Under the pieces are notes generated by a model. That model did not search any database and was not told the origin of the DNA. It saw only the letters and a program-made list of their open reading frames with translations. The position numbers and the translations under genes are program-made. Positions 1 through 61,885 of a DNA stretch of 64,000 nucleotides are shown here, in pieces. The DNA comes from a virus, in the IMG/VR virus record IMGVR_UViG_3300009149_000012, positions 32,001 to 96,000 of that record. One strand, given 5' to 3'. How positions within the stretch are numbered: the stretch's first letter is position 1; each line of letters starts with the position of its first letter.

Positions 1-138
1 GTTGCTACCGACCTGAAGCCGAGCTTCCTGGATCTGACGCAAACGGACGAGAGTGTCCTTGTCGATCGGATCCTTGATCGTGAGCCGGGGTTCAGTCGAC
101 TCTTGTGCCTCTTGGGTCGTGTTCTGGTCTTCAGGCAT
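1..138 (-). CDS. hypothetical protein, partial (runs off the left edge)
   Basis: ATG at 138 preceded by GGAG; open frame MPEDQNTTQEAQESTEPRLTIKDPIDKDTLVRLRQIQEARLQ... to the window edge. Confidence 0.65.
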   Translation of the reverse strand, partial: MPEDQNTTQEAQESTEPRLTIKDPIDKDTLVRLRQIQEARLQVGSN

Positions 139-166
139 GTTCATCTCCATTTGATCGGGGATTTTG

Positions 167-195
167 AGGGTACCGGGCTGGCACCCTCGTGTCAA
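167..195 (-). promoter_or_regulatory. sigma70-like promoter TTGACA-N17-TACCCT
   Basis: Perfect -35, 17-nt spacer, directly after the stop of 196..1158 and upstream of the edge ORF. Confidence 0.5.
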
Positions 196-1158
196 TCAGG
201 ATGCGTCGGCGAACGTCTTGTTCATCTTGGTCGTGACTTCACCGATGCTGGAGGCCCACTCTTTAAAGTCCTCCCAAGCACCGCTGATCACGTCCCAGAC
301 CTTGCGCATGAAGCCCCAAGCTTTATCGAGTGTCTCGGCGAGACCACCCTGCTTGTCGGCCGAAGCACTCTTGTACTTCGCCATTTGCTCGGCGCTGTAT
401 TGGAAGTCACCGCCCGGGATGTCCATTCCCTCGACGAAACGCTCCTCAGCCTTGCGAAGATGCTCGATGACTTTCTTGACATCACCAAGCTCACGCAGTG
501 CGAGCATCATGAGGAACTGGGCTTCCTTTTCGAACTCGACGGCCAAGATCTTCGACTTGTTGTACTTGTCGGAAGCCTCAACGAGATCTTCGAGCTTGTT
601 GCTCGCGACTTCCATCTGCTTGAGGTACGTCGCGTGCTTGCCTTGGGCGGTCTTGAGCCACCGCTGCCGGTTCTTGCCCGCTCGGTCGGAAGGCGCTGCC
701 ATCGCCGCCAAGTGCTGTTCGATCTTCTTCTGGGCGTCGTCGACCAACCGGTGAAGATGTCCGATGTCGAGTTGGACATCGTGGGTGGTTTGCTTCAGGT
801 CGTCATGGAGCCCTTCGGAGACGAGTCGTTCCTTGACCCAATCCTCAATCACCTCACCGCTCGTGACACGCCACCGACCAGCGGTGCCAGTTCCGCCGCC
901 ACCCTTCAGCATCTCGGGTGGGATCACAACGCCTTGGCGTTTGCACTTGTTGCGCCAGTGCTGAACCGCTGCCGCCCAAGACTTGCCGTTCTTGGGATCG
1001 AACCGATCCCCGGCTTTGGTGACGACGTACTTCCAGACGTTAAGTGTCTCGGGTGGAATTTCACCTTCGTCGACGCCCGCAACCATCCACTTGGGAGGTA
1101 CGAAGCGCGCATCGTAGGTATTCAGGAAGCGACCGGCAACTCTTTCAGCAAGTCCCAT
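196..1158 (-). CDS. coiled-coil putative internal head/virion protein
   Basis: ATG at 1158 with GGAG SD; N-terminal LAERVAGRF motif shared with other proteins in the window; heptad-rich. Confidence 0.7.
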   Translation of the reverse strand: MGLAERVAGRFLNTYDARFVPPKWMVAGVDEGEIPPETLNVWKYVVTKAGDRFDPKNGKSWAAAVQHWRNKCKRQGVVIPPEMLKGGGGTGTAGRWRVTSGEVIEDWVKERLVSEGLHDDLKQTTHDVQLDIGHLHRLVDDAQKKIEQHLAAMAAPSDRAGKNRQRWLKTAQGKHATYLKQMEVASNKLEDLVEASDKYNKSKILAVEFEKEAQFLMMLALRELGDVKKVIEHLRKAEERFVEGMDIPGGDFQYSAEQMAKYKSASADKQGGLAETLDKAWGFMRKVWDVISGAWEDFKEWASSIGEVTTKMNKTFADAS

Positions 1159-1168
1159 GTGACATCTC

Positions 1169-1217
1169 CATGCCCTGAACCAATGCATAAGAGCCTTATG
1201 AGATACCTTGGGGCATG
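1169..1217. promoter_or_regulatory. divergent pseudo-palindromic putative late promoter pair
   Basis: CATGCCC-N10-CATAAG-agc-CTTATG-N10-GGGCATG between two divergent genes. Confidence 0.55.
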
Positions 1218-1685
1218 AATTCGAAAGCCGTGGCCGCTCGTCTTCGGGCCCTTGCTGTAAGCTTGGACCAAGGGGCGATCGTTCCTAAACAACATGTCGT
1301 GTCTGTCCTAGCCGAGCTTCGAAATGACTTGGGGACCACCCGAACGGCGGCAAGTTCGGTCAAGCTCGACCGCTCGACTCTCCGAGACGTCAACCGGAAG
1401 CTTGACCGTGAAGGGCTGGACGGTCGAAAGCCCTTCCGTAGCTTCGGACTCGGGCTCGGTGAAATCGTCGACGTGCTGGGTCGGGAAGGCATCTTCATTG
1501 ATGACGTCATCCAAAAGCCCAGGTCGCCCGGGGGACAAAACACCTTCCCCTTGCGCCGTAAGTGGCCCTTGGAGAACTTCGGTGCTTTTGACCCAGGAGA
1601 TATCGTGGGCAACTCAATGCTCACGCTCTCATGGCACCAGTTCGAAGAGACCGGCAATTGGGAGATGATTGCCTACCTCAGCTAG
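1215..1685 (+). CDS. hypothetical phage protein
   Basis: 156-aa ORF, VAARLRALA and RTAA motifs, ends in WEMIAYLS. Confidence 0.7.
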   Translation: MNSKAVAARLRALAVSLDQGAIVPKQHVVSVLAELRNDLGTTRTAASSVKLDRSTLRDVNRKLDREGLDGRKPFRSFGLGLGEIVDVLGREGIFIDDVIQKPRSPGGQNTFPLRRKWPLENFGAFDPGDIVGNSMLTLSWHQFEETGNWEMIAYLS

Positions 1686-2373: not shown

Positions 2374-2607
2374 GTGACCATGATTCACGTCGAGTTGCGC
2401 AGCTACTTCGAAGGGCCCACCATCGGAATGGCGGAAATGGAGTCGCTCCCAGTCCCCCCGATGGTGGGAGACATCATCACCTTGCCAAAAGTCCATGGGC
2501 AATTCCGTGTGGATTGTCGGTGGCTCGATATCCGACACGGGATGACCAATCTCGTCCTGGCGGTCACGGAGATCAAGCGCAAAGGAATTTCTTGGGACAT
2601 CGATTGA
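2374..2607 (+). CDS. small hypothetical protein
   Basis: 77-aa ORF, AGGA upstream, VPPMVGDIITL beta-barrel-like motif. Confidence 0.55.
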   Translation: MTMIHVELRSYFEGPTIGMAEMESLPVPPMVGDIITLPKVHGQFRVDCRWLDIRHGMTNLVLAVTEIKRKGISWDID

Positions 2608-2640
2608 TTGAGACCAAGCTCACGCCTTAGAGGGTGCATG
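2604..2640 (+). promoter_or_regulatory. putative phage early promoter, leaderless (TTGAT-N16-CCTTAGAGGGTGC-ATG)
   Basis: Same motif with the same spacing at 31546-31583 (-) and 29444-29482 (-). Confidence 0.55.
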
Positions 2641-2802
2641 CAGACCGGAACCAAAGCCCTTCGCCAGACCGACACCAAAGCATGGGTTCAGCGTCATGGA
2701 GGCGGGTCGGCCAAGCGCCGTCGGTCGGCCGCTCGCTGCGAGAAGGCAATCGAGACCGCTACTCGTCGGGCTGGTAAGGCCGCTTGCAAGGAGACCTTCT
2801 GA
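2638..2802 (+). CDS. small basic hypothetical protein
   Basis: ATG directly follows the promoter motif; 54 aa, Arg/Lys/Ala rich. Confidence 0.5.
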   Translation: MQTGTKALRQTDTKAWVQRHGGGSAKRRRSAARCEKAIETATRRAGKAACKETF

Positions 2803-2803
2803 G

Positions 2804-3088
2804 ATGGCTGCGACCCTCACCCAAGCCCAACGCAACGACATCTGGCGGCTGGCGCAGCCGGAAGCTGAGAAGAACGGCCTGTTCTTCTACGAACAAAATG
2901 GGACAGACGAGCACCTTGAGGCTCTCGAATCCCTTGGGCTGATCACGTTCCGGTCGGCCACGCACTACTTTGCCTTCTCCAATGGCGAGCTTGGCGAAGA
3001 GGACGGCTTCCTGGTCAACATCACCGAAAAGGGCCGCAAATCCTATGAGCTTGCTGCCGCCGCTGGGCTGCACTCAGCTAGCACCTGA
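2804..3088 (+). CDS. winged-helix-like small protein
   Basis: AAGGAG SD; LEALESLGLI...ITEKGR wHTH-like pattern. Confidence 0.55.
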   Translation: MAATLTQAQRNDIWRLAQPEAEKNGLFFYEQNGTDEHLEALESLGLITFRSATHYFAFSNGELGEEDGFLVNITEKGRKSYELAAAAGLHSAST

Positions 3089-3955
3089 AGCTCCAATGAA
3101 CGCCCGGGGGGTCAAAACCCCTCGACCCACGTAAGGTCCGAACGCCGACCTGATCCCGATGCCGTACTTCGGTTGCTGTACGCCTCGGATGATCTTCACG
3201 GTCTGCTTGGCCTTTTCGAGCATGTCGTTGAACTGATCGTTGGCCGAGTTGGCAGCGGCTTCGTATTTGCTGCTCCGCTCGATCGACAAGGAAATGCCGC
3301 CAATCGAGTAGTCGAATTCGTCGGCGATCCAGTTGATTTGGAGCGCTCGAAGGGCCCAGATCATGCCGCCCGTCAAAACGAGCGTGCGCCATTCGGGCCG
3401 AGACTGCATGAGGTGGTCGAGCGATCCGAACGGCGTGCGAGGGGGCGCAGCAATCGCCATGTCGAGCCCACGTTGGATGTACTCCAGAAGCTCTTCGTCC
3501 TCCCAGATGAACCCAAAGACCCTGTTGTATTGCTGGATCGTCTCTTCATGACTCGGCGGGCGGAAATGGTAGTTTCGGTCAGGGCAATTTGAGACGAGCA
3601 TCCCTGACTTATGAAGATAGAAATTGTGCCAATCCTCAGCCGTCAAGTCGTACATATACCGCCTTGGAGCCAAGGGCTTGATAGACATCACCTTTGCCCC
3701 CACGACGTCCGCACCAGAAGCCAACTTCCCAGCTTCAACCTTGGAAGTAGGGGACGTGAAAACCCGGTGACCCCATGTCAGAACGGAAGCCCCTCGGGTT
3801 GTGGTCACCTCAACAATGGTCTCTGGGCCAACTTCAACTCGATGTACATCGAGCACCCGCTTCCAATCTTCTGACCCTTCAGGAGACTTGGAACGAACCC
3901 TCAATGTACCAGCTTGAAAAGCCGCCTTGATCTTATCCTTCTGTGCCGTGTCCAA
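3074..3955 (-). CDS. C-terminal half of a fractured gene: 123-aa C-intein plus C-extein of a putative head-tail adaptor
   Basis: TTG start at 3955 with GGAGAAGGA SD; intein block B (TWGHRVF), block F (MYDLTAEDWHNF), block G (VSN/C); extein CPDRNYHFRPP... Confidence 0.8.
   Translation of the reverse strand: MDTAQKDKIKAAFQAGTLRVRSKSPEGSEDWKRVLDVHRVEVGPETIVEVTTTRGASVLTWGHRVFTSPTSKVEAGKLASGADVVGAKVMSIKPLAPRRYMYDLTAEDWHNFYLHKSGMLVSNCPDRNYHFRPPSHEETIQQYNRVFGFIWEDEELLEYIQRGLDMAIAAPPRTPFGSLDHLMQSRPEWRTLVLTGGMIWALRALQINWIADEFDYSIGGISLSIERSSKYEAAANSANDQFNDMLEKAKQTVKIIRGVQQPKYGIGIRSAFGPYVGRGVLTPRAFIGASGAS
3587..3955 (-). mobile_element. split intein C-fragment (IntC, 123 aa)
   Basis: Blocks B, F and G present but no block A; ends Ser-Asn followed by Cys+1. 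Confidence 0.85.
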
Positions 3956-4865
3956 AATCCTTCTCCGTCCAGACCAGGAAGTCCCACCCCATTGTGGATG
4001 CATAAGAGGAAGCCTCACGAAGCCTGTGTTGAACCTTGTGTGTTTCAGGCAAATCCAGCACCCAACTAGCCTTAACCTCAAGTAAAACCAAGTGATCATC
4101 CGTGTAGGTCACAACAAAGTCAGGCAGAATCCATCGCCCTGACGGAAGTTTGACCCTTGGCTCGAACACATAGGTTTTCACGTCAGGGTCTTCATCGAGA
4201 AGCGTGACCACGATACGTTCGTAACTACTACGGGTCCAGATCCTTGGCTTTGAACACTTCAGAGGTTCCACCCAAGCTCCTCGCCCCCTAGACCATTTCA
4301 CTGGGTCTTCGATCATGCGACGAGATTGAGCCTTGGACCTTCTCAGCCGCTCTTCTTCAGAACGATGGAAAGCCAGCAAATGGGCTCTTTCTTCTGGCCG
4401 CTGCCACCGACGAAGAGCCGACATGCGGCGACGCTCACGAACTTCGGGTCTTTGGTTCGCCAGCCGAAGAGTCTCTCGTTCCTCTGGAGACCGAATTTTT
4501 CCTCTATGGAAGTCGAATTTACCGTCTGCCCAATCTGCCCGAAGACTTTCCGACAACCAGGGCTTCTTCCGACCACGCCCCGCTCTACCCACACGAGCGG
4601 CATTTTCAACACGATTTGCTTGGGAAGCAGGGTTCCCGGTGGCCTGGGTGAGACGCTGGATCCCCATCAAGGAGAGACCCGTCAACCTGGACATTTCAAG
4701 CCAAGGCATACCGGCCTCATGTAGCTCGGTCACCAAGGCCCTACGTTTTTCGGCCACACCTTTGGGAGGACGACCCTTTTTCTGAAGTATCTCCCAAGAC
4801 AGTCCGTGTTTTTCAAGCAGGGGTGCCAGTTCAGGGGGTGCCGTGGATGGTTTCCCAGAGGTCAC
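3933..4865 (-). CDS. free-standing TnsA-like PD-(D/E)XK putative homing endonuclease with N-terminal HTH and basic NUMOD3-like repeats
   Basis: RSSYE...LDEDPDV...YVFEP...LPDFVV...LLEVK motif set; lies between the two intein halves. Confidence 0.8.
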   Translation of the reverse strand: MTSGKPSTAPPELAPLLEKHGLSWEILQKKGRPPKGVAEKRRALVTELHEAGMPWLEMSRLTGLSLMGIQRLTQATGNPASQANRVENAARVGRAGRGRKKPWLSESLRADWADGKFDFHRGKIRSPEERETLRLANQRPEVRERRRMSALRRWQRPEERAHLLAFHRSEEERLRRSKAQSRRMIEDPVKWSRGRGAWVEPLKCSKPRIWTRSSYERIVVTLLDEDPDVKTYVFEPRVKLPSGRWILPDFVVTYTDDHLVLLEVKASWVLDLPETHKVQHRLREASSYASTMGWDFLVWTEKDFGHGTEG

Positions 4866-5319
4866 GGATAGTGGTTACCATTTTCTCACCATCCACGTCA
4901 AGCTCGACGGTCTCTTCTCCACCCACACAGTTATCCCTCAAAAGGATCCGGAGCCGGCGAATGAAGTCCTCTTCCACGCACGACATGGCGGTCACGCATT
5001 CAATCGTGCGGTCCACCACTTCAAATTCTTGAACAACCTGTTGGATCGGGCCGTTGACGAACTCTCGGAAGCTCCACCGAATCCGGTACTCGCCGATGTT
5101 GGCGTCGAGGGGGACCACAATGCTGGAGTAGTATTCTCCCACAGCAGGATGAGCCGGGGTGCGCCGGGGAACCCCAAGCAACACCTCTTGCCCTGCCGTG
5201 AAGTCATACAGGGCGTACGTGATCTCGGCAGCGTCGATGGGATGGTTCTGTGCGCTTTCGAGGAAGATGTTGAGGTCTTCCCGGCCTAGCTGCTGTCCTC
5301 GGTAGTACGCTGTTCCCAT
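4831..5319 (-). CDS. N-terminal half of a fractured gene: Ig-like N-extein plus 32-aa N-intein
   Basis: ...RRLRILLRDN/CVGGEETVELDVDGEKMVTTIRDLWETIHGTP*; block A-like C1 and TIRDL motif. Confidence 0.8.
   Translation of the reverse strand: MGTAYYRGQQLGREDLNIFLESAQNHPIDAAEITYALYDFTAGQEVLLGVPRRTPAHPAVGEYYSSIVVPLDANIGEYRIRWSFREFVNGPIQQVVQEFEVVDRTIECVTAMSCVEEDFIRRLRILLRDNCVGGEETVELDVDGEKMVTTIRDLWETIHGTP
4834..4929 (-). mobile_element. split intein N-fragment (IntN, 32 aa)
   Basis: Starts at Cys, block A pattern, strongly acidic, ends at a stop codon. Confidence 0.8.
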
Positions 5320-5320
5320 T

Positions 5321-5965
5321 CTAGTCGTCCAACGCTTCTTCTTCTTTGCGCAGACCCTTCAGGCGATTGTCGAAGCCATTGAACGCCTTTTCGGTGGCCT
5401 TCTGCATCTTTTTGGCCTTCTCACGGGTCTTCGAGATCAGTTCCGTGTAGTCGGATGGAACGCGTCCATTGGTCTGATCCTTGTTGTCCTTCATGACCTG
5501 CTCAAGCTCGTTCAATTCCTTGAGCAGGCCACTGTAGAACGAATCAGCTTCTTTTTCCTGGTGGTTGCCAAACTCGGGCCAGCCCTGTTCATTCTGCATC
5601 TTGCCAATGTTGGGCATTTTGTCTGACAGATCACGAATGTACTTGTTGGGGAGATCCTTCAGATCCTCAACCTCGTTCGACCACAAAGCATGGTCCCCCC
5701 GGGCCTCGGACAGTTCGTCTTTGAACTCCCAATCACTGGCGCTGTGAGCGTCGTCAATTTCGCTCCGGGTGCGAGGCTTCTTTTTCTCGGCAGGCTTGTC
5801 CTCACCCTTGGGCTCGTCCCCGCCCTGTTCCTTGACATGGTGCTTGGACTTATCAGCGTCAGGATGCTCGTGAAGATACTTTTTGAGCGCTTCAGGATTC
5901 GCGTGCTCCATAGACAAACCAAGGAAGCGAGCTACAACGCGTCGCGCAATTTTCTCATCACTCAT
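5321..5965 (-). CDS. charged putative internal head protein
   Basis: KIARRVVARFL N-terminal motif; K/E/D-rich helical composition. Confidence 0.7.
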   Translation of the reverse strand: MSDEKIARRVVARFLGLSMEHANPEALKKYLHEHPDADKSKHHVKEQGGDEPKGEDKPAEKKKPRTRSEIDDAHSASDWEFKDELSEARGDHALWSNEVEDLKDLPNKYIRDLSDKMPNIGKMQNEQGWPEFGNHQEKEADSFYSGLLKELNELEQVMKDNKDQTNGRVPSDYTELISKTREKAKKMQKATEKAFNGFDNRLKGLRKEEEALDD

Positions 5966-7170
5966 AACCAACCATACTTTCGGGTTCGGGGCAAGCCGTC
6001 ACTGAGATCGGAACACAAGGTTGCATCACAGACTCGGAACGGCATCATCTTCTCAAAGGCGGGGCTACAAGAGGATTTGCGGTACTTCCATGTGATACGC
6101 CAGTTGCCAGGCTGACTCTCCCAGCCTGCAAACCCGGCGACATGGAATTCCCCGTTGCCATCCCGAACCGGGATCTGGTTGCCAGGGCCCACGCAGACCC
6201 ATCCGCCGTGGTGCTGCATGCACAAGGTGTAGGTCACCTCGTAGGGCTCGACGTTGCCATCGAACCAGATCGCCAAATCCCCACGCTGCAAAAGCTGCCC
6301 GTAGCGAAAGCCTTCCGGGATCAACGAACAGATCGGCGTCAGGTCATCCACCACCATGTGGGCCGAAACGTTCGAAGTGCCGTGGACAATGCCGGGGACC
6401 GATAGGATCGCGCTGCTGTGGCCAACCACCTGACCGGAGGCGAGAATGAACATCGAGACGTCGCCTGTGAGCATCGACGATCCGAAGATCAATCCACCCA
6501 CAGCCAATTGGTTTTCGATGACAGCCGTGCCGGTGCCGTAGAGGTGTCCACCCACGAGCAAGTCTACCCAGATGGTACCTGCTATCGAAGAGGTTCCGCT
6601 TGCGGTCCCTCCCGCTGCAAGGGTCATCCGGTCGGCCACCATAGCAACGGCATCCCCAAGCGACACGCCATGAGCCGAGATCTGGGTCGTGATTGGCGCT
6701 GACAGGGAACTGTTGCCCACCATGAAGGCGTAAACCTTGGCGGGTGACCCAAGATATGCTGCAAGGGCCGAGTTGCCTTGGAGGGGCTGTGGGAGCGACA
6801 GGAGCCATGTTCCGGCGAGGGGTGCCGAAAGCGATCCGTCCCCAGCTAGGTCTGCCCGGGCTCCGAACGTCGCTGACAGGGTTGTCTCCGTGGTGGCTTC
6901 CCCTTCGAGAGACGTGGACAGCCCTCGGAGTCTGACCCCTCCCGCTGCAACCCCTGAATTGCCCCCCAACGCAGCGCCCACAGAGTGCAGTTTTCCCAGA
7001 AAGGGCGTGAGGGTGGACCCGCCCGCCATCCCCACTGCAATTGGAGTTACCGCCGCCGCTTGGGCTACAAGTTCACTCCCCCCACTCAAATCCGCCGACG
7101 CCGCTCGCACCCCAACGATTGACCCGAGAAGGGTCGCACCGTTCACAGAGATGCCAGTTACGTCAACCAC
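5962..7170 (-). CDS. Gly/Ala/Ser repeat virion protein with a C-terminal Ig-like domain
   Basis: Repeating A/L-x-G-x-S/G beta repeats; C-terminus (FRYGQLLQRGDLAIWF...GNWRITW) resembles the N-extein at 4831..5319. Confidence 0.7.
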   Translation of the reverse strand: MVDVTGISVNGATLLGSIVGVRAASADLSGGSELVAQAAAVTPIAVGMAGGSTLTPFLGKLHSVGAALGGNSGVAAGGVRLRGLSTSLEGEATTETTLSATFGARADLAGDGSLSAPLAGTWLLSLPQPLQGNSALAAYLGSPAKVYAFMVGNSSLSAPITTQISAHGVSLGDAVAMVADRMTLAAGGTASGTSSIAGTIWVDLLVGGHLYGTGTAVIENQLAVGGLIFGSSMLTGDVSMFILASGQVVGHSSAILSVPGIVHGTSNVSAHMVVDDLTPICSLIPEGFRYGQLLQRGDLAIWFDGNVEPYEVTYTLCMQHHGGWVCVGPGNQIPVRDGNGEFHVAGFAGWESQPGNWRITWKYRKSSCSPAFEKMMPFRVCDATLCSDLSDGLPRTRKYGWL

Positions 7171-7185
7171 ACTTTACTTTCCAGA

Positions 7186-7569
7186 CTAGTCTTCCTGGAC
7201 AATTAACTGTCCTACCGGGAATTTGATCTGATCGTTGATCTGCACGTCCCGGGTTGCCGTGAGATTGCCGTAATACAACATGTTCCCCGCCGCAGCGGCA
7301 TCCATGATGGCGAAGGCAACAACGATCCCCCATGGAGCCGATGCGACAGGAAAGATCAAGTCTGCGCTGTTGGAAACGGTGCCACCACTCGGAACGGAGA
7401 AAACCACCGTCTGGCGTGTGTAGCCACCACCGGTAACTTCGGTGCCGCCGCCCGTCTCGGTTGGAGCAACCGTGAACAGGGCGATATACACCGCAGCCGG
7501 GGACGAATACGAGATGGCACGGAGGACGTGGTTGAGGAGAACCTCTTCGAGGTAGTTCGTCTTGGACAT
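7186..7569 (-). CDS. small tail/virion structural protein (paralog of 8703..9125)
   Basis: VYIALFT...EVTGGGY.RQ...FP.A...WG...DAA.AGNMLYYG.LTA pattern typical of phage tail-associated proteins. Confidence 0.75.
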   Translation of the reverse strand: MSKTNYLEEVLLNHVLRAISYSSPAAVYIALFTVAPTETGGGTEVTGGGYTRQTVVFSVPSGGTVSNSADLIFPVASAPWGIVVAFAIMDAAAAGNMLYYGNLTATRDVQINDQIKFPVGQLIVQED

Positions 7570-8702: not shown

Positions 8703-9125
8703 CTACTGCTCTTGCGCCGTGATCGAACTGACCGGGAAGGTGACCGTATCACCCGGGTCGACCGTCTTCGAGGCGGTGAGCGCACCGTAGTACAGCATGT
8801 TGCCGGCCGTGGCTGCGTCGAGAAGCGCCATGTGCGTGACGGTGCCCCAGGACAAGGTTGCCGTGGGGAAGGTCACTGCGCCACCCGAGTTGGTGGTCTG
8901 GCGGGGGGTACCAGCGGGGGCACCGAACAGACCTGTGGCTGCAACCCGTGCGTAGGCTGTGCCGACCGTGGTCACTTCCGCAACCTGGCTACCGGCGTTG
9001 CCGGGATCTGCCGTGAACAGGGCCACGTAGACCGCTGCCGGGCTGGTGGCGGTGAAGTTGGCGTTCTGGCAAAGCCAGAAGTCCAGGGTTCGTTCTTCAG
9101 CGTAGTACGTCTTGTTGTCGGCCAT
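8703..9125 (-). CDS. small tail/virion structural protein (paralog of 7186..7569)
   Basis: SPAAVYVALFT...DAATAGNMLYYGALTA; AAGGA SD. Confidence 0.75.
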   Translation of the reverse strand: MADNKTYYAEERTLDFWLCQNANFTATSPAAVYVALFTADPGNAGSQVAEVTTVGTAYARVAATGLFGAPAGTPRQTTNSGGAVTFPTATLSWGTVTHMALLDAATAGNMLYYGALTASKTVDPGDTVTFPVSSITAQEQ

Positions 9126-9705
9126 GAGTCAGTTCCTTGTTAGGAGGTTGGTCACCTGTAGATGCCTTATGAACAGAAAACCGATCATCCCACTCATCAA
9201 GAAACGCCGCCGCCGCCCGAAGCAGCGAAGCATCGTCTTTGGCATACCCAAGAACCAGGTTGCAATTTCGGTGGATCAACCCCCGCACACACTTGCCGCA
9301 AGACTTTTTCCCCGAACAGCACGTCCGGTCGTGATCCACACAAACGGAGAGAGGGTCCTTGCCCTCTTTGAGCATGGGCTTATGGCAAACAGCGCACAAA
9401 CCATCCTGAGCTTGCCAAAGGGCTTCGAAATCGACGTTGTACCTTCCTCGATACACGATGGCCTTGAACTGCTTGGGGTGTCGTAGCTGCCAATCCCGAG
9501 AAATCTGGGACGCACGGCCAGGATTCTTAGCTCGCCAAGCCGTTGTTCGTGCGTTGTACTTTTGAGGGTCGGCTGCTTGCCGAGCCGTGTTGTCTTTATT
9601 GGTGCAGACTTTACACTGGGCTCGGCGTTTGGTGGGATCGTTTCGTCGACACAGATGAAAGTCGTCTTCGTCTTTGTCTAGGCCACACTTGGTGCATCGC
9701 TTCAT
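9097..9705 (-). CDS. endonuclease VII-family (His-Me) homing endonuclease with N-terminal zinc ribbon
   Basis: KRCTKC...CKVC; QDGLCAVC...VDHD...VRGLIHRNCNLVLG..KDD. Confidence 0.85.
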   Translation of the reverse strand: MKRCTKCGLDKDEDDFHLCRRNDPTKRRAQCKVCTNKDNTARQAADPQKYNARTTAWRAKNPGRASQISRDWQLRHPKQFKAIVYRGRYNVDFEALWQAQDGLCAVCHKPMLKEGKDPLSVCVDHDRTCCSGKKSCGKCVRGLIHRNCNLVLGYAKDDASLLRAAAAFLDEWDDRFSVHKASTGDQPPNKELTHGRQQDVLR

Positions 9706-12267: not shown

Positions 12268-13128
12268 TCACAAGAGAATGGGGCTCGCAGAATCCTCGTA
12301 GCCCATTTCAATCAGTTCTTGGATCTCCTTTTGGCCGAAATCCAAGGAATTCGTCGGATATGGTCTTGAAGGCCAGACAAGGCGCACCTTCACGTGCTTG
12401 TACTTGCCGCCGAGCTTGGAAATCTGGTTCTTGAGTCCACACACCTGAAGATCGTTGCGAATGATCTCCATGGACATGAGATCCACCGCCCTCATCGCGT
12501 AGGGAAGCGTCGTTTTGCCTTTTGAGTCCCACTCGTCCGGCAGATCTGGATTTGAACAAACCACGACGTCGATTTCGTCGCAGCCTGCTTTAATGGCTTG
12601 CCCAAGAGGGGTCACGGTGCGCACGCCGCCATCGGTCCACATCTTACCATTGATCTCGATCGGCGTGAGGAAGACCGGGAAGCTGGCCGAAGCGTAAACC
12701 CAATCAACCACTTCGGGGTCATCTTCGGTCGCGACGCCAATTTCTCCGTCATCCCAGCACACGGCCAGAACACGCAAAAGCCGATCAGATTCTGCAATCA
12801 GCTTCGGGTCGATGTTTTTCTTGAGCCGGTCGTACAGGGGGGCCGAGTTGTACACGGAGGGCTTCCACAGAGCAGAGGCAAGGTACCACCCGAACCAATG
12901 CTTCCAGACGCCGTCGTTGCCAATCTCGTCCCAGAACCGGCGAAGCTCTAGGAACTTTTCTTTCAACTCGCCCCGCTTTGCTTCGGCGAGCTTGGCTGTG
13001 TCAATTGCACCGACCGAGACGCCGGCCATCAAATCGTAATCCTGGTCCTCTTCCATGATCCAGCGAAGCAAGACACCGATTTGATACGCGCCCTTCTTAC
13101 CGCCACCACTTAGAACTAAGCCTTTCAT
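12268..13128 (-). CDS. patatin-like phospholipase
   Basis: LVLSGGGKKG oxyanion loop, GVSVG nucleophile elbow, ASASFP and DGG motifs. Confidence 0.92.
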   Translation of the reverse strand: MKGLVLSGGGKKGAYQIGVLLRWIMEEDQDYDLMAGVSVGAIDTAKLAEAKRGELKEKFLELRRFWDEIGNDGVWKHWFGWYLASALWKPSVYNSAPLYDRLKKNIDPKLIAESDRLLRVLAVCWDDGEIGVATEDDPEVVDWVYASASFPVFLTPIEINGKMWTDGGVRTVTPLGQAIKAGCDEIDVVVCSNPDLPDEWDSKGKTTLPYAMRAVDLMSMEIIRNDLQVCGLKNQISKLGGKYKHVKVRLVWPSRPYPTNSLDFGQKEIQELIEMGYEDSASPILL

Positions 13129-36052: not shown

Positions 36053-38833
36053 TCACGATCCAAGGGCATACAAGCGACCCTTGAAAACGAGAATTTGGAC
36101 TTCCTCCGCTTTGAGTTCACGTCCGATTACCTGACTACAACGAGCCAAGTATTCCTTTTGATTCCCATGGGTTAGACCGCCCACAGCAACGATGGCTTTA
36201 TACAAGCGACCTTCACCGGCCAGCGACGCACGTTTGGTCATGGCGTCGACAGTCCGAGAAATCGCCAAAATGTCCCGACCCGTGAAATTGCCGGTCTTTG
36301 CGACCGCATTCCACCCACCGGACTTGTACAAGATCAGTCCAGCAAGGATCTTCCGGGACGCCTGGGCAGTGGGGGAAGCGCTCAACACGTAGTCAGCGAT
36401 CCCTTTCCACTGTTTTGACTTTTTGATTGCCGACTTGATCAGCGTGTCATTCTGGTTCTCACGAACGTCATGTACACGGTCGGCATCCTCTGAATTCATC
36501 TCTTCTCGGACTTCACGGACCGCCCGCTCACGAAGCGTATCCTTCAATTCCTTGACCACGGAATCCATCGGAGATTCAGGTTTGGCTTCCTGAGTTTCCG
36601 GATCGGCAGCGTCGTCAAAGTCAAAAGAATTGACCGGTGAGAATGTCCTCGGAATGACCACCGACGCTTGCTCGCCTGCAAGCTGATTCAACAGGTAGTC
36701 AATGTGATGTTGTCCCACCATCGAAGCGGCCTTACGCAGTGCGTTCGGGTCGATGCTTCGGTTGGTGTTGAACGCGATCTGAACCTTGTCTCCCACATTG
36801 GGGACCTGGGCTGGGGACAGAACGTTCCTGAGAACGGCACCGAGGAACGCCGGGTTCGCAACCCAGGACGCCTCAATGAACTTCACGCTCTTGGGGTCGC
36901 TCTTGTGCCCACAAAGCTCGGCGATCTTGCGCTGGATACCATTGGCATCCACGAAGGGCATCCCCTTGAAGTATCGGATATGCGGGCAGAGGGCCGATTC
37001 GTCGGCCGCAACGTTGCCGCACTTCGTACACTGCGTGTACTCCACAGTGCAGTTGGATACAGCCAATCCGTGAACCGTGTACGAATGGTCTTCCTCAACC
37101 TCTAGGTCATGAACCCACCCTTCATACTCGAACGGCTCGATCCCCTTAATCGGGAAGATCACCATGTCGTCGAGATTTCGAAGATTCTGGTTCTTGCGAC
37201 GTGTTCCTAGTACGGGGGCCTTGTCACAAACTGTTGTGAGACAGTCTGACGAGGACTGCGGAAAACACAAATTGAAGTGAGCCAGCTTGCCAGTCACTTC
37301 ATGACGACGAACTTCACCTCCAACCACAGCCTCCGAAATGGTTGCGGTCTTACCTCCAAACCGACATTCCATTCTAACGGGAATACCACACCGGATGGCA
37401 AGCATCTGAAGCTGACACACCAGGTCATAGGATGTCGTCGTACCCGTTGCATGCCCGGCTTGATGCTGGTTGCCATCCCCATTGATCCAGGCACCAAGAA
37501 TGTGACGCTGCACCTCAACGGGCCACCACATAGCCTCTGGGCTCAAGCGCTTGCGATGGGAATACTCCCCTCCATGCTGCAAAAACCATTGAACCATGTC
37601 ATGGCCCGTGGCATGAACTGTGGCCGTCGAACGTTCTGGTCGGTCCTGAATCCACGCTGGATTGGCTTCTGGAAATTCAGCAGCAAGAAGGTCTACCACT
37701 TCTTGAACGAACGTGTCGCGTTCGTCAGAGGAGAAGTTGAACTGTACCTCTGTGGGCTTGCCCTTATGCTTGAGGAAAGAGCCTTCTGCTAAGAAGTACC
37801 CCAAGAGACGGGCTCGCCCTTCAGACTCCCGTTCAATAGGGGCTTCGACGAGCTTGGGGAGACAGACATAGTCCCCAACCTGAAGCTCATCCGCACGCAC
37901 CTTCTCAACTTGAAGAGCCTTCAAGTCTTCCATCTTCTGTCGGCGGCGACGTGCTTCCCCCAATGAGTAGGTTCCATTCGGATTGAAGATTCGCTTGTCA
38001 TGACCAACTTTGAACCGTTTGGTCATGCGTCGAACAGAATCACGATCTGTCGAAGATAGTTTTTCCCCGCAACCACAGCCACAAGTCTTGGCCGCACGCA
38101 AAACATAGAATTCGTGAGTGTCCGTCACGCCGATAGAATCGGGCAACCCCACAACACTGATCCGGCGCATCCCCCAATGACCCTGTCGAATCTGCTTGTT
38201 GACAACCTCACGTGCTCGGCCCTTGTGCGTGAGAACCATCTCACCCGGCTGCACATCCTCAATGGGAATCCGCCGCCCATCTGACAAGGTAACAGGTGTT
38301 CCAGGCAGGAAACAACCCATCGAGAGGGTCTGAAGCTGGCCCGACGTGATCGCCTGAATGAGCGGGTGGAATCGCTTCTCAGTTGCAACCAGGATGTCGA
38401 CGTAGACAGACTCACCAATGTCCCTGGCGGCGGCATCGATGATCTTGCCCTTGGACAATTCAGGAATCTGAATGTGCTCGACATAGTTCTCGCCACCAAT
38501 GAAGGTGGGGAACGTCTGGAGCAACAGATCCCGCTCCCAGCAATCCTGGTTGTTGTTGATGTACTTCTCGGTCTCTGCCGAGATCAAGTAGTTCGAAAAC
38601 TTGCGGTTCACCTGGAACCCATCGACCATATGAATGCCGAGAGGCTCCGGGGACTCCTGCGTGTCCACCGACGCGATGATCGTGCAATGCGTCAACAAGT
38701 ATTGGTCAGGGTCATACCGAGGAAGCACGACATTGGATGCCGTTCGTGTCCCCCCCTTTGCCCTCTCCGTCCACTCACTGACTGAGGTGGAGGGGTTGAT
38801 CGTTTTTGCGTGAGCAAACCGTAGATGGGCCAT
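36053..38833 (-). CDS. prohead maturation protease precursor containing an intein
   Basis: N.N.D...NYVEH...GKIIDA...LSMG/C...CTKCGN...CPHI...FIEASWVANPAF..A pattern of HK97/herpes-fold phage proteases; upstream of the scaffold. Confidence 0.8.
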   Translation of the reverse strand: MAHLRFAHAKTINPSTSVSEWTERAKGGTRTASNVVLPRYDPDQYLLTHCTIIASVDTQESPEPLGIHMVDGFQVNRKFSNYLISAETEKYINNNQDCWERDLLLQTFPTFIGGENYVEHIQIPELSKGKIIDAAARDIGESVYVDILVATEKRFHPLIQAITSGQLQTLSMGCFLPGTPVTLSDGRRIPIEDVQPGEMVLTHKGRAREVVNKQIRQGHWGMRRISVVGLPDSIGVTDTHEFYVLRAAKTCGCGCGEKLSSTDRDSVRRMTKRFKVGHDKRIFNPNGTYSLGEARRRRQKMEDLKALQVEKVRADELQVGDYVCLPKLVEAPIERESEGRARLLGYFLAEGSFLKHKGKPTEVQFNFSSDERDTFVQEVVDLLAAEFPEANPAWIQDRPERSTATVHATGHDMVQWFLQHGGEYSHRKRLSPEAMWWPVEVQRHILGAWINGDGNQHQAGHATGTTTSYDLVCQLQMLAIRCGIPVRMECRFGGKTATISEAVVGGEVRRHEVTGKLAHFNLCFPQSSSDCLTTVCDKAPVLGTRRKNQNLRNLDDMVIFPIKGIEPFEYEGWVHDLEVEEDHSYTVHGLAVSNCTVEYTQCTKCGNVAADESALCPHIRYFKGMPFVDANGIQRKIAELCGHKSDPKSVKFIEASWVANPAFLGAVLRNVLSPAQVPNVGDKVQIAFNTNRSIDPNALRKAASMVGQHHIDYLLNQLAGEQASVVIPRTFSPVNSFDFDDAADPETQEAKPESPMDSVVKELKDTLRERAVREVREEMNSEDADRVHDVRENQNDTLIKSAIKKSKQWKGIADYVLSASPTAQASRKILAGLILYKSGGWNAVAKTGNFTGRDILAISRTVDAMTKRASLAGEGRLYKAIVAVGGLTHGNQKEYLARCSQVIGRELKAEEVQILVFKGRLYALGS
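37052..38314 (-). mobile_element. LAGLIDADG-containing intein (421 aa) in the prohead protease
   Basis: CFLPGTPV start, TDTHEF block B, LLGYFLAEG and ILGAWINGDG, VHDLEVEEDHSY...VSN/C. Confidence 0.93.
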
Positions 38834-47323: not shown

Positions 47324-50300
47324 TTACCTCCGTCCCACGCTGCGCTCCGAGAACTGACCATGTCGGCGACTACGAGAGCGCTGGTAACGCGTAACACTCA
47401 TAGCTGACGCCGCATAAGGGGCTCCTGCAAACCTTCCGCCCTGAGCGATGAACTTCTTGTCTCCACGCCGGGCTTCACTCAAATGGACCGCTCGAACGAA
47501 GGCGTCGCTGAGATCGTCATGGGCGTCGACCACTTTCGGGGCCTCGACCACCACGAGGTTCTTGCTCACCTGGCGGGCCTGCAAGCTCAAAAGCTCTTGG
47601 ATGAGTTGGGAGTGCTTCTTTCCGACCAAGGGGTAGTCATACAGGCGCAAACGCTTGTCGTACATCAAGAGCTTGGCTTGCTGGAAGATCTTCGAAGACT
47701 GGTCACGGGTGAAGTATTGGCTGTTAAACTGCTTGAGCCCCATCTTGTGGAGCCGTTGCTCCAATGGGATGCCGTTCCACCGGTCGAACAGTCCGTCCGT
47801 GATGTAGAAGTGCTTGCAAAGAAGAGCGATCCAATCGGCGATTTCGTCGAAATCTAGCCGCTCGACATTCGAAAGCGTCTTGGCGTAGTTGGAGAGAGGT
47901 TCAACCAGGTGCGGGTTTGACTCACGCCAGTCGACCCCAGCCTGCCAGGTCTCATGGTAGTCGAGAACGACGTCCTCACCCTCAGGGTGGGTGATCACGA
48001 TGCCGGTGCCGTCGCCGACCAAACCAATGTCGATCCCCATCTGGTGAGGCGAGCGGGGCAGACCCCGGGTATGAGGCCGAAGATCTGGATCGATGCAGTC
48101 AAGCAAATCGGATTCACGCTCGATCCAACCCCGCATCTGATCGGAGAACATGGCGCCGTGCTCGACCATGAACACGGTCGGGTCGGCGTGGTACTTCTGC
48201 TTGTAGTAGGAAGACTCGACCGTGGGATTGATCTCCCACGTGGGGGCCTGGACAGCCAACAGGTTCTCGGAACCCTCTCCACCCCGCATCGCCTGGTCAA
48301 ATTTCTCCCAAAACAGACCGCTCTTGCCCAAGGGGCTGGAGATGAGGATGGTGCGAGCCTCGACAGGGCCGATTGCCACCTGGTTGTCTTCGGGGTCCTT
48401 CGGTGAGAAAGAAGCCGTCGACGGGGTGATGGCCTCGTAGATCTCTTTTGCAGAGGACGTTCCGTTATCCTGGAAGTGGGCGACTTCGTCCAAGATGATG
48501 ATGACGTTGCCGGCGCCACGAAGACCACGAGCGATGCAAGACTTGAACGTGACCCGGAGACTCGACTTGCCTTGGAAGCTCTGGAATGAGCCATCCTTGA
48601 CCCTGTTGATGGATCCGAACCGGTCGATCTCGTAGGGGGTACGGAAGTGGACGTGCGTCTGCGTGTTGTTGGCGATGTAGGGCGTGAAGTATTGGCACTT
48701 GGCAAGATGGCTCGCCACGTCGTTGTACAGAAGCCCCGCCTGATCCTTGTCGGTCGCCACCGAGATGATCTGCACCCGGTTGCCGTTGGGCAGACCGTAG
48801 TATTCCTGCGGATTGTACAGGTTCAGAAGCCGGTACACCTCGTAGCTCGCAAAGATGGCACTGAGGGTCGTGTTGTGGTTGGTCAAGCCGTTGGCTACGA
48901 AAGACGCCCCATCAGGCACGTTCAGATCGTAGACATGATCTTCACCCTCCTCGACAGACACGACAGGGTCGAAGAAATAGTCTTGGTGCAGCAAGTCCTC
49001 GAAGTGCTGCATTTCATCTTTCCCAGCGCCTAGTTCCCGAGCCACTTTCAGGGCCTCGACCATCCTGGTGTAAGTCAGATCCTCTTTTGAGCCAGGTTTG
49101 CACACGTTGCCCAAGGCTTTTCGGAGATGGGAACGGCCCCACCCCAGTTCCCCTCTCGCAGAATTACGCTTCGGAACGGACTTCAACAAGTTCCGCACCC
49201 TAGTGTACTGGTGGGGTACGCTCTCCGTGTTCGATTTACCTTCCTGGGCACGTTCAAGAGCTTCAAGCAAAGGTCCTTGCTTCTTCTCCGAGTCGAACCC
49301 CACAAGCTGGGCAAACCGACGTCGGGATCTCACACCCTTGATGCTCAGGTTAGCGTAGTGCCTTTTGGTTTTTCGGTTCCACTTGCGACCGATGTTCGAG
49401 ACGATCCCCAGGTTCAGGAGAAGTACCTGAACCTCATGGGCCAACCGAAAACTGGCCGAAGAGAACGTGATGTGGCGGCCCCCGCATTCGGCAGATCCGT
49501 CCGTCTCGAAAAGCCCCCGTAGAAACGCACACACCACATGGCGGGGCGACCGAAGGACCACCCACGGCACCATCTTGTCATAACGCCCACAGTCCGTCAC
49601 CCATCCGAGGTTAGCCAAGAACCGGCGCATCCCCACACTAGGAAATTCCAGTCGACCTGTCCCTTCTGTTCGCTGGTCCATCTGGACTCGATGTGACCCC
49701 AACAAGCTGTTGAACAGTTCTTTGAGCCGATCCCACGTCTCAGGGTGTTCCACTGTCATGGCGACACCCTGCGTGTGCGCCCAGCTACCGTCTCCGACAA
49801 GGTAGCCAAGAAGCAAGCCCCACTTTTCACTGAAAGTGTCAGGAAAAGACAGGTCCTTGTACCCGTCCGTGTTGTGGAACGGCTTAAGATCCACAAGGTC
49901 CTGAGACCATAGGTCAGTGGTCCGATTGACTGCCAGGTAGTCGCCGGGCCGGATGTTGTCCAGATACTTCCATTCCACGCAGCCTGACTCAGCCATCACC
50001 CTGACCCGGTGATTGCCCGTCCCCCGAACAGAGTAACCAGACCAACTCTTCACCGAGAAGGTTGGCTTCACACCACCGTCATAGAAAAAGGCGGATCTCG
50101 CTTGTCGCCCACCCTCTTGAGCCACCCCCACATTGAAGGATGTGGTGTCTTCCTCCGAAGCGCACGCCAAGTCCTTGATAGGGAACAAACCCAAGTCTGT
50201 CAAAACCAGGGTGTCGCCTGAAACACACTTGCCGGCCCGACGGCCGATCGGCAGGATAAGCTCACGCCGCTCGTGATCTTGTTCCCCGATGTTGCAGCGC

Positions 50301-50629
50301 CCCTCTTCGAACAGGTACTTCAGGAACTCTTTTTCGGTGAACCGATAGAGCACCTTGGTGTTGAACATATCCGTGACAGGAACGTTCTGTTCGGTGTCGT
50401 CTAGCTCCAAATGGTAGTAGAGCTTGACAAGAAAACGCTGGCCTGGGTACAGCCGCATCGACAGCCCCCACGGCTGTTCGATGTAGTCGATGATACTGAA
50501 GATGCGAGGGCCCTTTTGGCCTCCATCTTGAATTGTGCTTGAGGTGGTGATCGCATCACGCCGTGCGACCTGACCGGCTTTACGGATGAGGGAGCTTACG
50601 CCCGCCCCTTTGGTTTTGCGAGGCGGCAT
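47324..50629 (-). CDS. terL: terminase large subunit with an intein
   Basis: Walker A GRRAGK/T, Walker B IIILDE, LISSP coupling motif, RNase H-like GIDIG...HDDLSDA. Confidence 0.93.
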   Translation of the reverse strand: MPPRKTKGAGVSSLIRKAGQVARRDAITTSSTIQDGGQKGPRIFSIIDYIEQPWGLSMRLYPGQRFLVKLYYHLELDDTEQNVPVTDMFNTKVLYRFTEKEFLKYLFEEGRCNIGEQDHERRELILPIGRRAGKCVSGDTLVLTDLGLFPIKDLACASEEDTTSFNVGVAQEGGRQARSAFFYDGGVKPTFSVKSWSGYSVRGTGNHRVRVMAESGCVEWKYLDNIRPGDYLAVNRTTDLWSQDLVDLKPFHNTDGYKDLSFPDTFSEKWGLLLGYLVGDGSWAHTQGVAMTVEHPETWDRLKELFNSLLGSHRVQMDQRTEGTGRLEFPSVGMRRFLANLGWVTDCGRYDKMVPWVVLRSPRHVVCAFLRGLFETDGSAECGGRHITFSSASFRLAHEVQVLLLNLGIVSNIGRKWNRKTKRHYANLSIKGVRSRRRFAQLVGFDSEKKQGPLLEALERAQEGKSNTESVPHQYTRVRNLLKSVPKRNSARGELGWGRSHLRKALGNVCKPGSKEDLTYTRMVEALKVARELGAGKDEMQHFEDLLHQDYFFDPVVSVEEGEDHVYDLNVPDGASFVANGLTNHNTTLSAIFASYEVYRLLNLYNPQEYYGLPNGNRVQIISVATDKDQAGLLYNDVASHLAKCQYFTPYIANNTQTHVHFRTPYEIDRFGSINRVKDGSFQSFQGKSSLRVTFKSCIARGLRGAGNVIIILDEVAHFQDNGTSSAKEIYEAITPSTASFSPKDPEDNQVAIGPVEARTILISSPLGKSGLFWEKFDQAMRGGEGSENLLAVQAPTWEINPTVESSYYKQKYHADPTVFMVEHGAMFSDQMRGWIERESDLLDCIDPDLRPHTRGLPRSPHQMGIDIGLVGDGTGIVITHPEGEDVVLDYHETWQAGVDWRESNPHLVEPLSNYAKTLSNVERLDFDEIADWIALLCKHFYITDGLFDRWNGIPLEQRLHKMGLKQFNSQYFTRDQSSKIFQQAKLLMYDKRLRLYDYPLVGKKHSQLIQELLSLQARQVSKNLVVVEAPKVVDAHDDLSDAFVRAVHLSEARRGDKKFIAQGGRFAGAPYAASAMSVTRYQRSRSRRHGQFSERSVGRR
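48872..50227 (-). mobile_element. LAGLIDADG-containing intein (452 aa) in the terminase Walker A motif
   Basis: CVSGDTLV start, TGNHRV, LLGYLVGDG and FLRGLFETDG, VYDLNV...NHN/T. Confidence 0.95.
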
Positions 50630-61192: not shown

Positions 61193-61874
61193 CTGTCATT
61201 TTCTCCTGAAGAAACGCCTGAAGCTTGTCATCTCCCCAGGCGAGCCACAAATCAGCGGGATCCTTCGCCAGCTTCCCATCTACAAGGAACGCCTCAGGAT
61301 ACCGCAAGCTCTCGATATGGAAAAGGTCTCCATGTGCACTTTTCGCCTCATCGAAACCTTTCCTCCCAGCACTGTCCCTGTCGTACAAGAACCACGCCTT
61401 GCCCACGAGTCGGTGAAGCAAGCGAGCGAATGAATTGGTCAAAGTCGCCGTCTGCGTCGCAACCGTGGCGGGTTCAGCACGTTGGCATGGAAACAAGTCA
61501 AAGGCACCCTCAACGAGCAAGACCTTCTCGCTCTCCCAGATATGAGGGGCGGCTTGTCCAAGCCCAAAGAAGGTGGGTTCCGGGAAGTCGGGGGCATGCC
61601 ACGTCATGTAGCCCTTGATCTTCTCGTGAATACTCCGGAATTGGATCCCCGTGAGGTTTCCGAGAATGTTGGTCAGGGGTAGGACGTGGGACTGCTTGAT
61701 GTCGTACCGGCGAATGAAACGACCAAGGGACGGCGGGGTATTGTCGGGAGCCCCTTCCATGTACCCAAGTCGAAATAGCTCGATTTGGTCATCCGACACC
61801 CCTCGACTCCAAAGGGCATCGAGTGCTTCCGACGTCAGGGCGTCATGCGCGCAATCGACAAACGAGTCCAACAT
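61185..61874 (-). CDS. DnaG-like primase core (Toprim), no zinc-binding domain in this ORF
   Basis: LWSRGVS...F.LGY, G.QFR, VLLVEGAFD, YDRDSAG.KG, KDPADL. Confidence 0.8.
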   Translation of the reverse strand: MLDSFVDCAHDALTSEALDALWSRGVSDDQIELFRLGYMEGAPDNTPPSLGRFIRRYDIKQSHVLPLTNILGNLTGIQFRSIHEKIKGYMTWHAPDFPEPTFFGLGQAAPHIWESEKVLLVEGAFDLFPCQRAEPATVATQTATLTNSFARLLHRLVGKAWFLYDRDSAGRKGFDEAKSAHGDLFHIESLRYPEAFLVDGKLAKDPADLWLAWGDDKLQAFLQEKMTDG

Positions 61875-61885
61875 GTCCCCATGTC

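Follow-up and report, generated by a model that had tools for sequence, protein, structure and literature searches.

The locus described here lies on the minus strand of positions 3074-5319 in a 64,000-nucleotide (nt) stretch, hereafter the window, of the virus record IMGVR_UViG_3300009149_000012 from IMG/VR. Coordinates refer to the window unless another record is named, and all features of the locus lie on its minus strand. Three open reading frames (ORFs) overlap one another in three different frames, as reported in a preliminary description of this DNA whose coordinates and residue counts were all found correct on recheck. The same three-ORF layout was found in at least 15 other phage records, at 38-75% protein identity, and this recurrence indicated that the arrangement is not a product of chance. 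We regard it as highly probable that the three ORFs constitute a fractured neck gene in a huge, uncultured phage whose product is rejoined by a trans-splicing intein, and that the intein is split by a gene for a TnsA-like endonuclease.

The first ORF (ORF1, 4831-5319) encodes 162 amino acids, made up of the host protein's N-terminal part (N-extein, 130 amino acids, 4930-5319) followed by an N-terminal intein fragment (IntN, 32 amino acids, 4834-4929) and a stop codon at 4831-4833. The N-extein ends with LRILLRDN, and it is predicted to contain a beta-sandwich domain and the first helix of an adaptor-like protein. IntN starts with the cysteine Cys1 (CVGGEETVELDV, CVGGEETV...), contains intein block A only, and is acidic, with an isoelectric point (pI) of 4.1. 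The second ORF (ORF2, 3933-4865) initiates at a GTG codon at 4865, overlapping the end of ORF1 by 35 nt, and encodes a free-standing endonuclease of 310 amino acids followed by a stop codon. This protein carries an N-terminal helix-turn-helix (HTH; 4668-4766, about residues 34-66), a helical linker, and a C-terminal TnsA-like PD-(D/E)XK nuclease domain (3936-4298, residues 190-310).

The third ORF (ORF3) is open from 3074 to 4099 and has a conserved TTG start codon at 3953-3955. Initiation at TTG 3955 agrees with the N-termini of relatives (MLD.TQ.DKI..AF) and yields a protein of 293 amino acids, in which a C-terminal intein fragment (IntC, 123 amino acids, 3587-3955) precedes the remainder of the host protein (C-extein, 170 amino acids, 3077-3586, stop codon at 3074-3076). 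IntC is basic (pI 9.5) and contains block B (TWGH), block F (YMYDLTAEDWHNF), and block G (MLVSN). The C-extein begins with Cys+1 in the sequence CPDRNYHFRPP... and is modeled as a helical adaptor-like domain with an extended C-terminal arm. The end of ORF2 overlaps the start of IntC by 23 nt. A Shine-Dalgarno-like sequence, GGAGAAGGA, could be read at 3958-3966, 2 nt upstream of the IntC TTG codon, and is a candidate ribosome-binding site; it overlies the endonuclease codons for a conserved C-terminal W-T-E-K-D motif. In most alleles a purine-rich GGAG/AAGGA tract was present within 16 nt before the presumed IntC start.

The intein halves and the nuclease gene together form a cassette of 1343 bp (3587-4929) located inside the motif RDN/xPDRNYHFRPP, in which the slash marks the insertion point. 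The composition of the cassette is foreign to that of the exteins, a signature of mobile elements: G+C content at third codon positions was 0.52 in the nuclease gene and 0.55 in IntC, compared to 0.72-0.74 in the exteins. A scan of 2800-6200 for sigma-70 promoters identified no site, and the two weak terminator-like sites found in the same interval were fewer than expected from shuffled sequence.

To relate the insert to known inteins, a profile (A4) was built from an alignment of 12 IntC-C-extein proteins and compared with the PDB. The best matches were the Mja KlbA intein (2jmz, E 9.1e-11) and the Pho RadA intein (4e2u, E 3.4e-9), followed, down to E 1e-5, by the CDC21, Spl DnaX, Npu DnaE, and TFIIB inteins, and the alignments began about 40-50 residues into the solved inteins. 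Within A4, T60 and H63 of the block B T-x-x-H motif and the terminal N123 were invariant in all 12 alleles, and the +1 residue was Ser or Cys. Across 16 alleles, IntN was 29-37 amino acids long and always began with Cys1, and IntC was 123-134 amino acids long. Cys1, T-x-x-H, the terminal Asn, and a Cys or Ser at +1 were kept in all 16, at only 34-64% IntC identity. In the window, Cys1 is Cys131 of ORF1, the first residue beyond the part that ORF1 has in common with uninterrupted homologs of the host protein. By its sequence, the insert is a class-1 mini-intein of 155 amino acids, split after block A and before block B. The profile matches and the conserved catalytic residues confirmed as an intein what had been described beforehand as a 32-residue acidic IntN and a 123-residue basic IntC with TWGH and VSN/C. 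The atypical split with a short IntN was likewise borne out, since IntN holds block A only and blocks B to G lie in IntC.

The C-terminal 170 residues had 1327 homologs of 187-597 amino acids, most of which were about 296 amino acids long and uninterrupted. The uninterrupted homologs start like ORF1 and cross the junction as ...LRILLRD[NG]-[KN]PDRNYHFRPP (alignment A1). The N-extein aligned end to end with their residues 1-130, and IntN was absent from them. The closest uninterrupted relative, P0002, was 92% identical to the N-extein and 89% identical to the C-terminal piece, and the nearest alleles that bear an intein showed 61-68% protein identity. In a tblastn census of IMG/VR, the N- and C-parts were joined at 60 of 65 loci, the two matches lying exactly one codon apart; in homologs that lack the intein this codon specifies K or N where the window has Cys+1. 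The absence of contiguous homologs across the junction would have refuted the preliminary description; such homologs were found, with codon-exact agreement. An insert at the same site as in the window was present at three census loci (L001, L002, and L039). A further locus, L065, carried a related insert at a second site (...NWIADEF/S...) in a gene that was otherwise uninterrupted. At that locus (L065:3626-6005) one open frame of 519 amino acids runs through a Vsr-like nuclease, an IntC, and the final 75 residues of the extein.

A phmmer search with IntC among 1.84 billion representative proteins returned 38 matches, which were then sorted into types by BLAST. One type has an unbroken mini-intein at the site occupied in the window (for example P0218, 453 amino acids; P0242, 454 amino acids; P0215; P0228; and P0234), and IntN of the window aligned with the N-terminus of the mini-intein in P0234, P0215, P0218, and P0242. 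The contiguous alleles read ...LWEAVQD-EAVDNKLRLAF..., and the break in the window falls in exactly that loop. Other matches included alleles with a second intein at ADEF/xYSIGG (P0211, P0216, P0217, and P0233), middle fragments in which an extein segment is flanked by the IntC of the first site (a) and the IntN of the second site (b) (P0220-P0222, P0225, P0226, and P0232), and C-terminal pieces from site b (P0236 and P0238).

One locus contained the same gene in three pieces distributed over five ORFs (L069:2047-5695, record IMGVR_UViG_3300035150_000015). The ORFs encode, in order, N-extein-IntN(a), a TnsA-like nuclease, IntC(a)-middle extein-IntN(b), a Vsr/DUF559-like nuclease, and IntC(b)-C-extein. 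Rebuilding the protein at this locus would need two different atypically split inteins, one with Cys1 at site a and one with Ser1 at site b.

The nuclease encoded by ORF2 belongs to a family of 89 homolog clusters. Pfam family PF08722 (TnsA-like_N) was matched at E <= 0.01 by 25 of 27 aligned family members (best E 1.2e-8), and the residues E216, P248-D249, and E263-x-K265, predicted to be catalytic, were invariant. An AlphaFold2 (AF2) model of ORF2 had a predicted local distance difference test (pLDDT) score of 88.2. Fold comparison with VIA placed residues 190-310 of the model on residues 39-175 of TnsA (1t0f_A; Z 12.5, root-mean-square deviation (rmsd) 2.1 A over 114 residues), and Foldseek gave the same match at E 6.7e-6. 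The next VIA match scored Z 7.6, with Vsr (1cw0) at Z 7.1 and I-Bth0305I (3r3p) at Z 6.6. Family-wide Pfam matches, catalytic motif, and fold therefore agreed with the earlier proposal that a TnsA-like PD-(D/E)XK nuclease occupies the break. Residues of about 10-77 resembled the HTH of DnaA domain IV, both by VIA (Z 6.0) and in hidden Markov model matches. PHROG 218, annotated as 'head closure', also matched ORF2 (E 2e-7); the match lies on the nuclease domain, which has the TnsA fold, and we read PHROG 218 as a mislabeled family and rejected a head closure identity for ORF2. The label may itself stem from nucleases of this kind embedded in neck genes.

A scan of IMG/VR with the nuclease family alignment returned 17 loci, and in 17 of 17 the nuclease gene lay between the IntN and IntC of the same host gene. 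At four loci (L079 and L082-L084) the nuclease was truncated or carried an internal deletion, with the intein halves and the exteins still intact. Decayed copies are expected of a homing element late in its cycle, and the analysis of the family points to a predicted role of the HTH and TnsA-like protein as a homing endonuclease. A search of the literature found no paper that links TnsA-like nucleases to inteins, nor one that describes a homing role for the PF08722 family.

The overlap of three ORFs in three frames might at first suggest frameshifting, and the insert could in principle be removed at the level of RNA or translation, by an intron, ribosomal bypass, or programmed frameshifts, to give a single polypeptide. 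An Rfam search of 2500-6000 (E <= 0.1) identified no family, group I and group II introns included. Moreover, the insert encodes its own conserved 310-residue protein, and the flanks encode intein halves in frame with the exteins. Two records, G001 (134.7 kb) and G002 (202.8 kb, from a different sample), bear further on this point, as in both the halves of the gene are unlinked. In G001 the nuclease-IntC-C-extein module lies at about 129.07-130.82 kb (approximately 129067-130816, minus strand) with unrelated genes of the opposite strand upstream, and the N-extein-IntN gene lies at 61,653-62,132 (plus strand), encoding 163 amino acids that read ...LRMLLRDH/CVAGEEVV... and end at a stop codon after 31 intein residues. 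In G002 an identical N-half is located at 68,500-68,988 (minus strand) and the module occupies the first 1.5 kb (14-1514, plus strand). The two are independently assembled records of one phage with the halves about 67 kb apart on opposite strands, a geometry that would fit a single inversion of about 68.7 kb with a breakpoint between the IntN stop codon and the nuclease start. Repair at the RNA level is implausible across such a distance and between strands. Together, the Rfam result and the unlinked halves made RNA-level removal, which the preliminary description had named as a refuting outcome, unlikely, and we give practically no weight to any route through RNA or translation.

When 67 kb and a change of strand separate the halves, the protein can be completed in two ways only, by trans-splicing or by non-covalent assembly. 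In the latter case the intein halves would be a dimerization handle and no peptide ligation would take place. The fragmented NrdA of phage Aeh1, reportedly assembled via interaction domains, offers a precedent without splicing (PMC3045599). The penultimate residue of block G in the window could be cited in the same sense, being Ser (VSN) and not the usual His. Docking alone, however, would not need the catalytic positions, yet 16 alleles, with IntC identity as low as 34%, retain every one of them, and in the contiguous cis alleles of this intein the conserved motif is freed only if splicing occurs. Splicing is favored over non-covalent assembly by this strict conservation of all catalytic residues, and we judge a purely non-covalent role improbable. 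Protein trans-splicing is the best explanation of how the two pieces would be joined.

The gene could also be dead, inactivated by a mobile nuclease cassette and represented by decaying fragments. Nuclease copies do decay in L079 and L082-L084. In every allele examined, however, the exteins and intein halves were intact, conserved, and free of stop codons. The arrangement persists in alleles down to 38% nuclease identity, the exteins of the window remain 89-92% identical to those of an uninterrupted relative, and no second copy of the adaptor gene, intact or otherwise, was found in the 148.9-kb record. A dead gene is in our view very improbable.

Several points weigh against a trans-splicing intein split by a TnsA-like nuclease gene. 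The Pfam Intein_splicing family (PF14890) matched residues 128-171 of ORF3 at E 2.6e-5 with 24.5 bits, below the cut-off of 35.8, and PF08722 matched ORF2 of the window at E 1.7e-5 with 25.7 bits, below the cut-off of 26.5. The Ser in place of the penultimate His of block G counts here as well. A His at this position is common, not universal, and many active inteins lack it; it was present in some of the related alleles (L077, L080, L082, and P0081). The record is about 31% complete, and an intact second copy of the host gene could lie elsewhere in the genome. Finally, both the splicing reaction and the target of the nuclease are predictions.

The host protein is probably a head-to-tail adaptor, an assignment that draws on modeled structure. 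An AF2 model of P0002 showed an N-terminal beta-sandwich (residues 1-105) of macroglobulin/Ig-like fold, a helical domain (residues 114-268), and an extended, poorly modeled C-terminal arm. When residues 114-280 of the model were compared with solved folds using VIA, the helical domain best matched Pa223 (9nwi_A, Z 11.1), Cyanophage A4 (9k09_d, Z 10.8), KHP30 (Z 10.1), and GP4 (8jov_2, Z 10.0, rmsd 3.0 A over 103 residues), with VP1, SU10, Carin-1, T4 gp13/14, and the phage 812 neck lower in the same list. Eleven of the 12 best matches were chains of portal-tail or neck complexes from unrelated phages. The resemblance to podophage head-to-tail adaptors at Z 10-11 is good evidence for the assignment, though not decisive. 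The top PDB match of the adaptor model in Foldseek was the R4C portal-adaptor complex (E 6.4e-4); the remaining Foldseek PDB matches were mostly Ig-like and fell on the N-terminal domain, and BFVD returned only unnamed phage proteins. PHROG 17327 ('head-tail connector') gave a weak match (E 1e-4 to 9e-3). In the phage group the gene occurs as a single copy and is both very widespread and strongly conserved, and a homolog of Gp80-type head-fibre proteins is encoded 1.9 kb upstream, at 7186-7569.

The host could instead be another component of the neck or virion, for example a head-completion or decoration protein, and the split-intein reading would be unaffected. The P0002 model is of medium confidence (pLDDT 64.6), at Z scores of 10-11 a mere similarity of arrangement can make helical bundles match, and the adaptor sequence profile found no solved relative in the PDB, only a chance match at E 0.92; these points count against the adaptor assignment. 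Pfam and PHROGs returned nothing for ORF1, the host protein has no Pfam match, the neighboring genes are mostly unannotated, and the additional N-terminal Ig/macroglobulin-like domain is atypical of the matched adaptors. Against this alternative stand the predominance of portal-tail and neck chains among the best fold matches, the portal-adaptor complex at the top of the Foldseek PDB matches, and the single-copy, widespread, and conserved nature of the gene. We consider a different virion component unlikely, though less so than any of the alternatives to trans-splicing. The preliminary description had named a probable head-tail adaptor; the adaptor-like fold and the weak PHROG match lend it support, and the choice of an adaptor over another neck or virion protein stays at the level of probability.

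The intein interrupts the protein immediately behind the first helix, within the motif that the family conserves most strongly, in which P132, D133, Y136, F138, R139, P140, and P141 are invariant. Inteins typically occupy sites of this kind. The beta-sandwich of the N-extein has a paralog in the C-terminal 100 or so residues of the protein of 402 amino acids encoded upstream (5962-7170, minus strand), at 27-31% identity, and the same was observed in most related loci.

The layout of the locus is that of the fractured genes described by Dassa, London, Stoddard, Schueler-Furman, and Pietrokovski in 2009, in which an N-part with IntN, a free-standing endonuclease ORF, and an IntC with C-part follow one another on one strand (PMC2677866). 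In that study the 3' end of the endonuclease ORF overlapped the start of the IntC ORF by 6-69 bp at 15 loci, the endonucleases were GIY-YIG or Vsr-like, and a non-coding spacer of 27-51 nt separated the IntN stop codon from the endonuclease start (PMC2677866). The locus shares the gene order, the single strand, the phage origin, and the complementary charges of the intein halves, and its nuclease-IntC overlap of 23 nt (mostly 4-35 nt in relatives) compares with the 6-69 bp reported there. The early split point also resembles that of the GOS 'Terminase' locus, which is broken after motif N1 and has an IntC of 122 residues (PMC2677866), compared to 123 in the window. In contrast to the known fractured genes, the host is a neck or adaptor-like virion protein and not an enzyme of DNA metabolism or packaging, and the endonuclease is TnsA-like with an HTH and neither GIY-YIG nor Vsr-like. 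The nuclease start overlaps the IntN end by 35 nt where those genes have a spacer, as is likewise the case in L068 and L069. The host gene differs further in having, among its relatives, a second insertion site, three-piece alleles, and alleles with unlinked halves. The fractured-gene layout is thus already known, and the host protein and the nuclease family are new here.

The natural atypically split inteins characterized so far come from TerL and PolB and include AceL-TerL (25/104 amino acids), GOS-TerL (37/115 amino acids), and PolB16 OarG (15/168 amino acids) (PMC11766414, PMC10189870). Like these, the intein of the window combines a very short IntN that contains only block A with a long, nearly complete IntC and comes from a metagenomic phage source; the nucleophiles, Cys1 and Cys+1, are those of AceL-TerL. 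It differs from AceL-TerL, GOS-TerL, and PolB16 in its extein. The phmmer search with IntC among the 1.84 billion representatives returned no terminase-borne intein, only alleles of the host gene and a few repeat proteins, so any kinship to the TerL or PolB inteins appears remote at the sequence level. No report of an atypically split intein in a head-tail protein was found in the literature.

ORF2 resembles TnsA of Tn7 (1t0f, 1f1z; PF08722) in the fold of its catalytic domain and in the E...PD...ExK motif. Unlike TnsA, it lacks that protein's C-terminal domain, carries a fused HTH at the N-terminus along with a long helical linker, is always encoded between intein halves, and is accompanied by neither TnsB/C/D partners nor Tn7 ends. 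The cyanobacterial split DnaE intein also has unlinked halves, and G001 and G002, with theirs far apart and on different strands, are reminiscent of it. In the window, by contrast, the halves are adjacent, the split lies near the N-terminus and not at the canonical site of endonuclease insertion, and the C-half retains its attached nuclease gene.

In the mechanism that we propose, three proteins would be produced from overlapping frames of one late operon, namely N-extein-IntN (162 amino acids), the nuclease, and IntC-C-extein (293 amino acids). The ribosome-binding site for IntC-C-extein would lie in the last codons of the nuclease gene, and translation of the two may be coupled. The acidic IntN of 32 residues would dock into the basic, nearly complete IntC, and the reassembled HINT fold would then carry out the N-S shift at Cys1, trans-thioesterification to Cys+1, cyclization of the terminal Asn, and the S-N shift. 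The product would be a seamless adaptor of about 300 residues reading ...LRILLRDN-CPDRNYHFRPP.... The mini-intein itself would have been broken after block A by the free-standing homing-endonuclease gene. During co-infection the nuclease would be expected to cut alleles that lack its gene, whether they carry a contiguous mini-intein or an empty site, and the nuclease gene would then spread via recombinational repair.

Taken together, the alleles lead us to favor, by a narrow measure, a broader reading, namely that atypically split inteins have a natural hot spot in the adaptor of these huge phages, a widespread group. It would have two sites (RDN/xPDRNYH and ADEF/xYSIGG), each with cis, split, and three-piece alleles, and neck assembly in many of these phages would need one or two orthogonal trans-splicing reactions. 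The HTH and TnsA-like proteins would form an unrecognized family of homing endonucleases specific for this intein, and their cuts could seed large rearrangements such as the 68.7-kb inversion that would have separated the halves in G001 and G002.

Natural split inteins with a short, synthesizable IntN are few, and they are wanted for protein semisynthesis and labeling (PMC11766414, PMC10189870). The present family would provide a large natural set for protein engineering, with 89 clusters of the nuclease and dozens of IntN/IntC pairs that are 34-75% identical, and it offers natural cis controls and, within the same protein, a further Ser1 intein that is apparently orthogonal. It would also extend the reach of inteins and fractured genes beyond enzymes of replication and packaging, suggest that manufacture in pieces is tolerable for a part of the virion that is required at a fixed stoichiometry, and add the TnsA type to the nuclease folds that are candidates for homing endonucleases.

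Canonical contiguous inteins, each with a LAGLIDADG endonuclease domain, were present in two large ORFs elsewhere in the window, one of 926 amino acids (36053-38833, minus strand) and one of 1101 amino acids (47324-50629, minus strand). The ORF of 1101 amino acids matched Intein_splicing at E 1.2e-12 and LAGLIDADG_3 at E 1e-17, and the matches of the ORF of 926 amino acids were weaker; the host proteins of both inteins matched no Pfam family. Together with the split intein, these two bring the number of inteins carried by the phage to at least three. The block of structural genes also includes a patatin-like phospholipase (12268-13128, minus strand, E 4e-28) and an endonuclease VII homolog (9097-9705, minus strand, E 1e-11). 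A TnpB/Cas12f-like protein of 447 amino acids is encoded at 29745-31088 (minus strand), with a match to the Pfam Cas12f1-like TNB family at E 1e-15 and a PHROG annotation as transposase.

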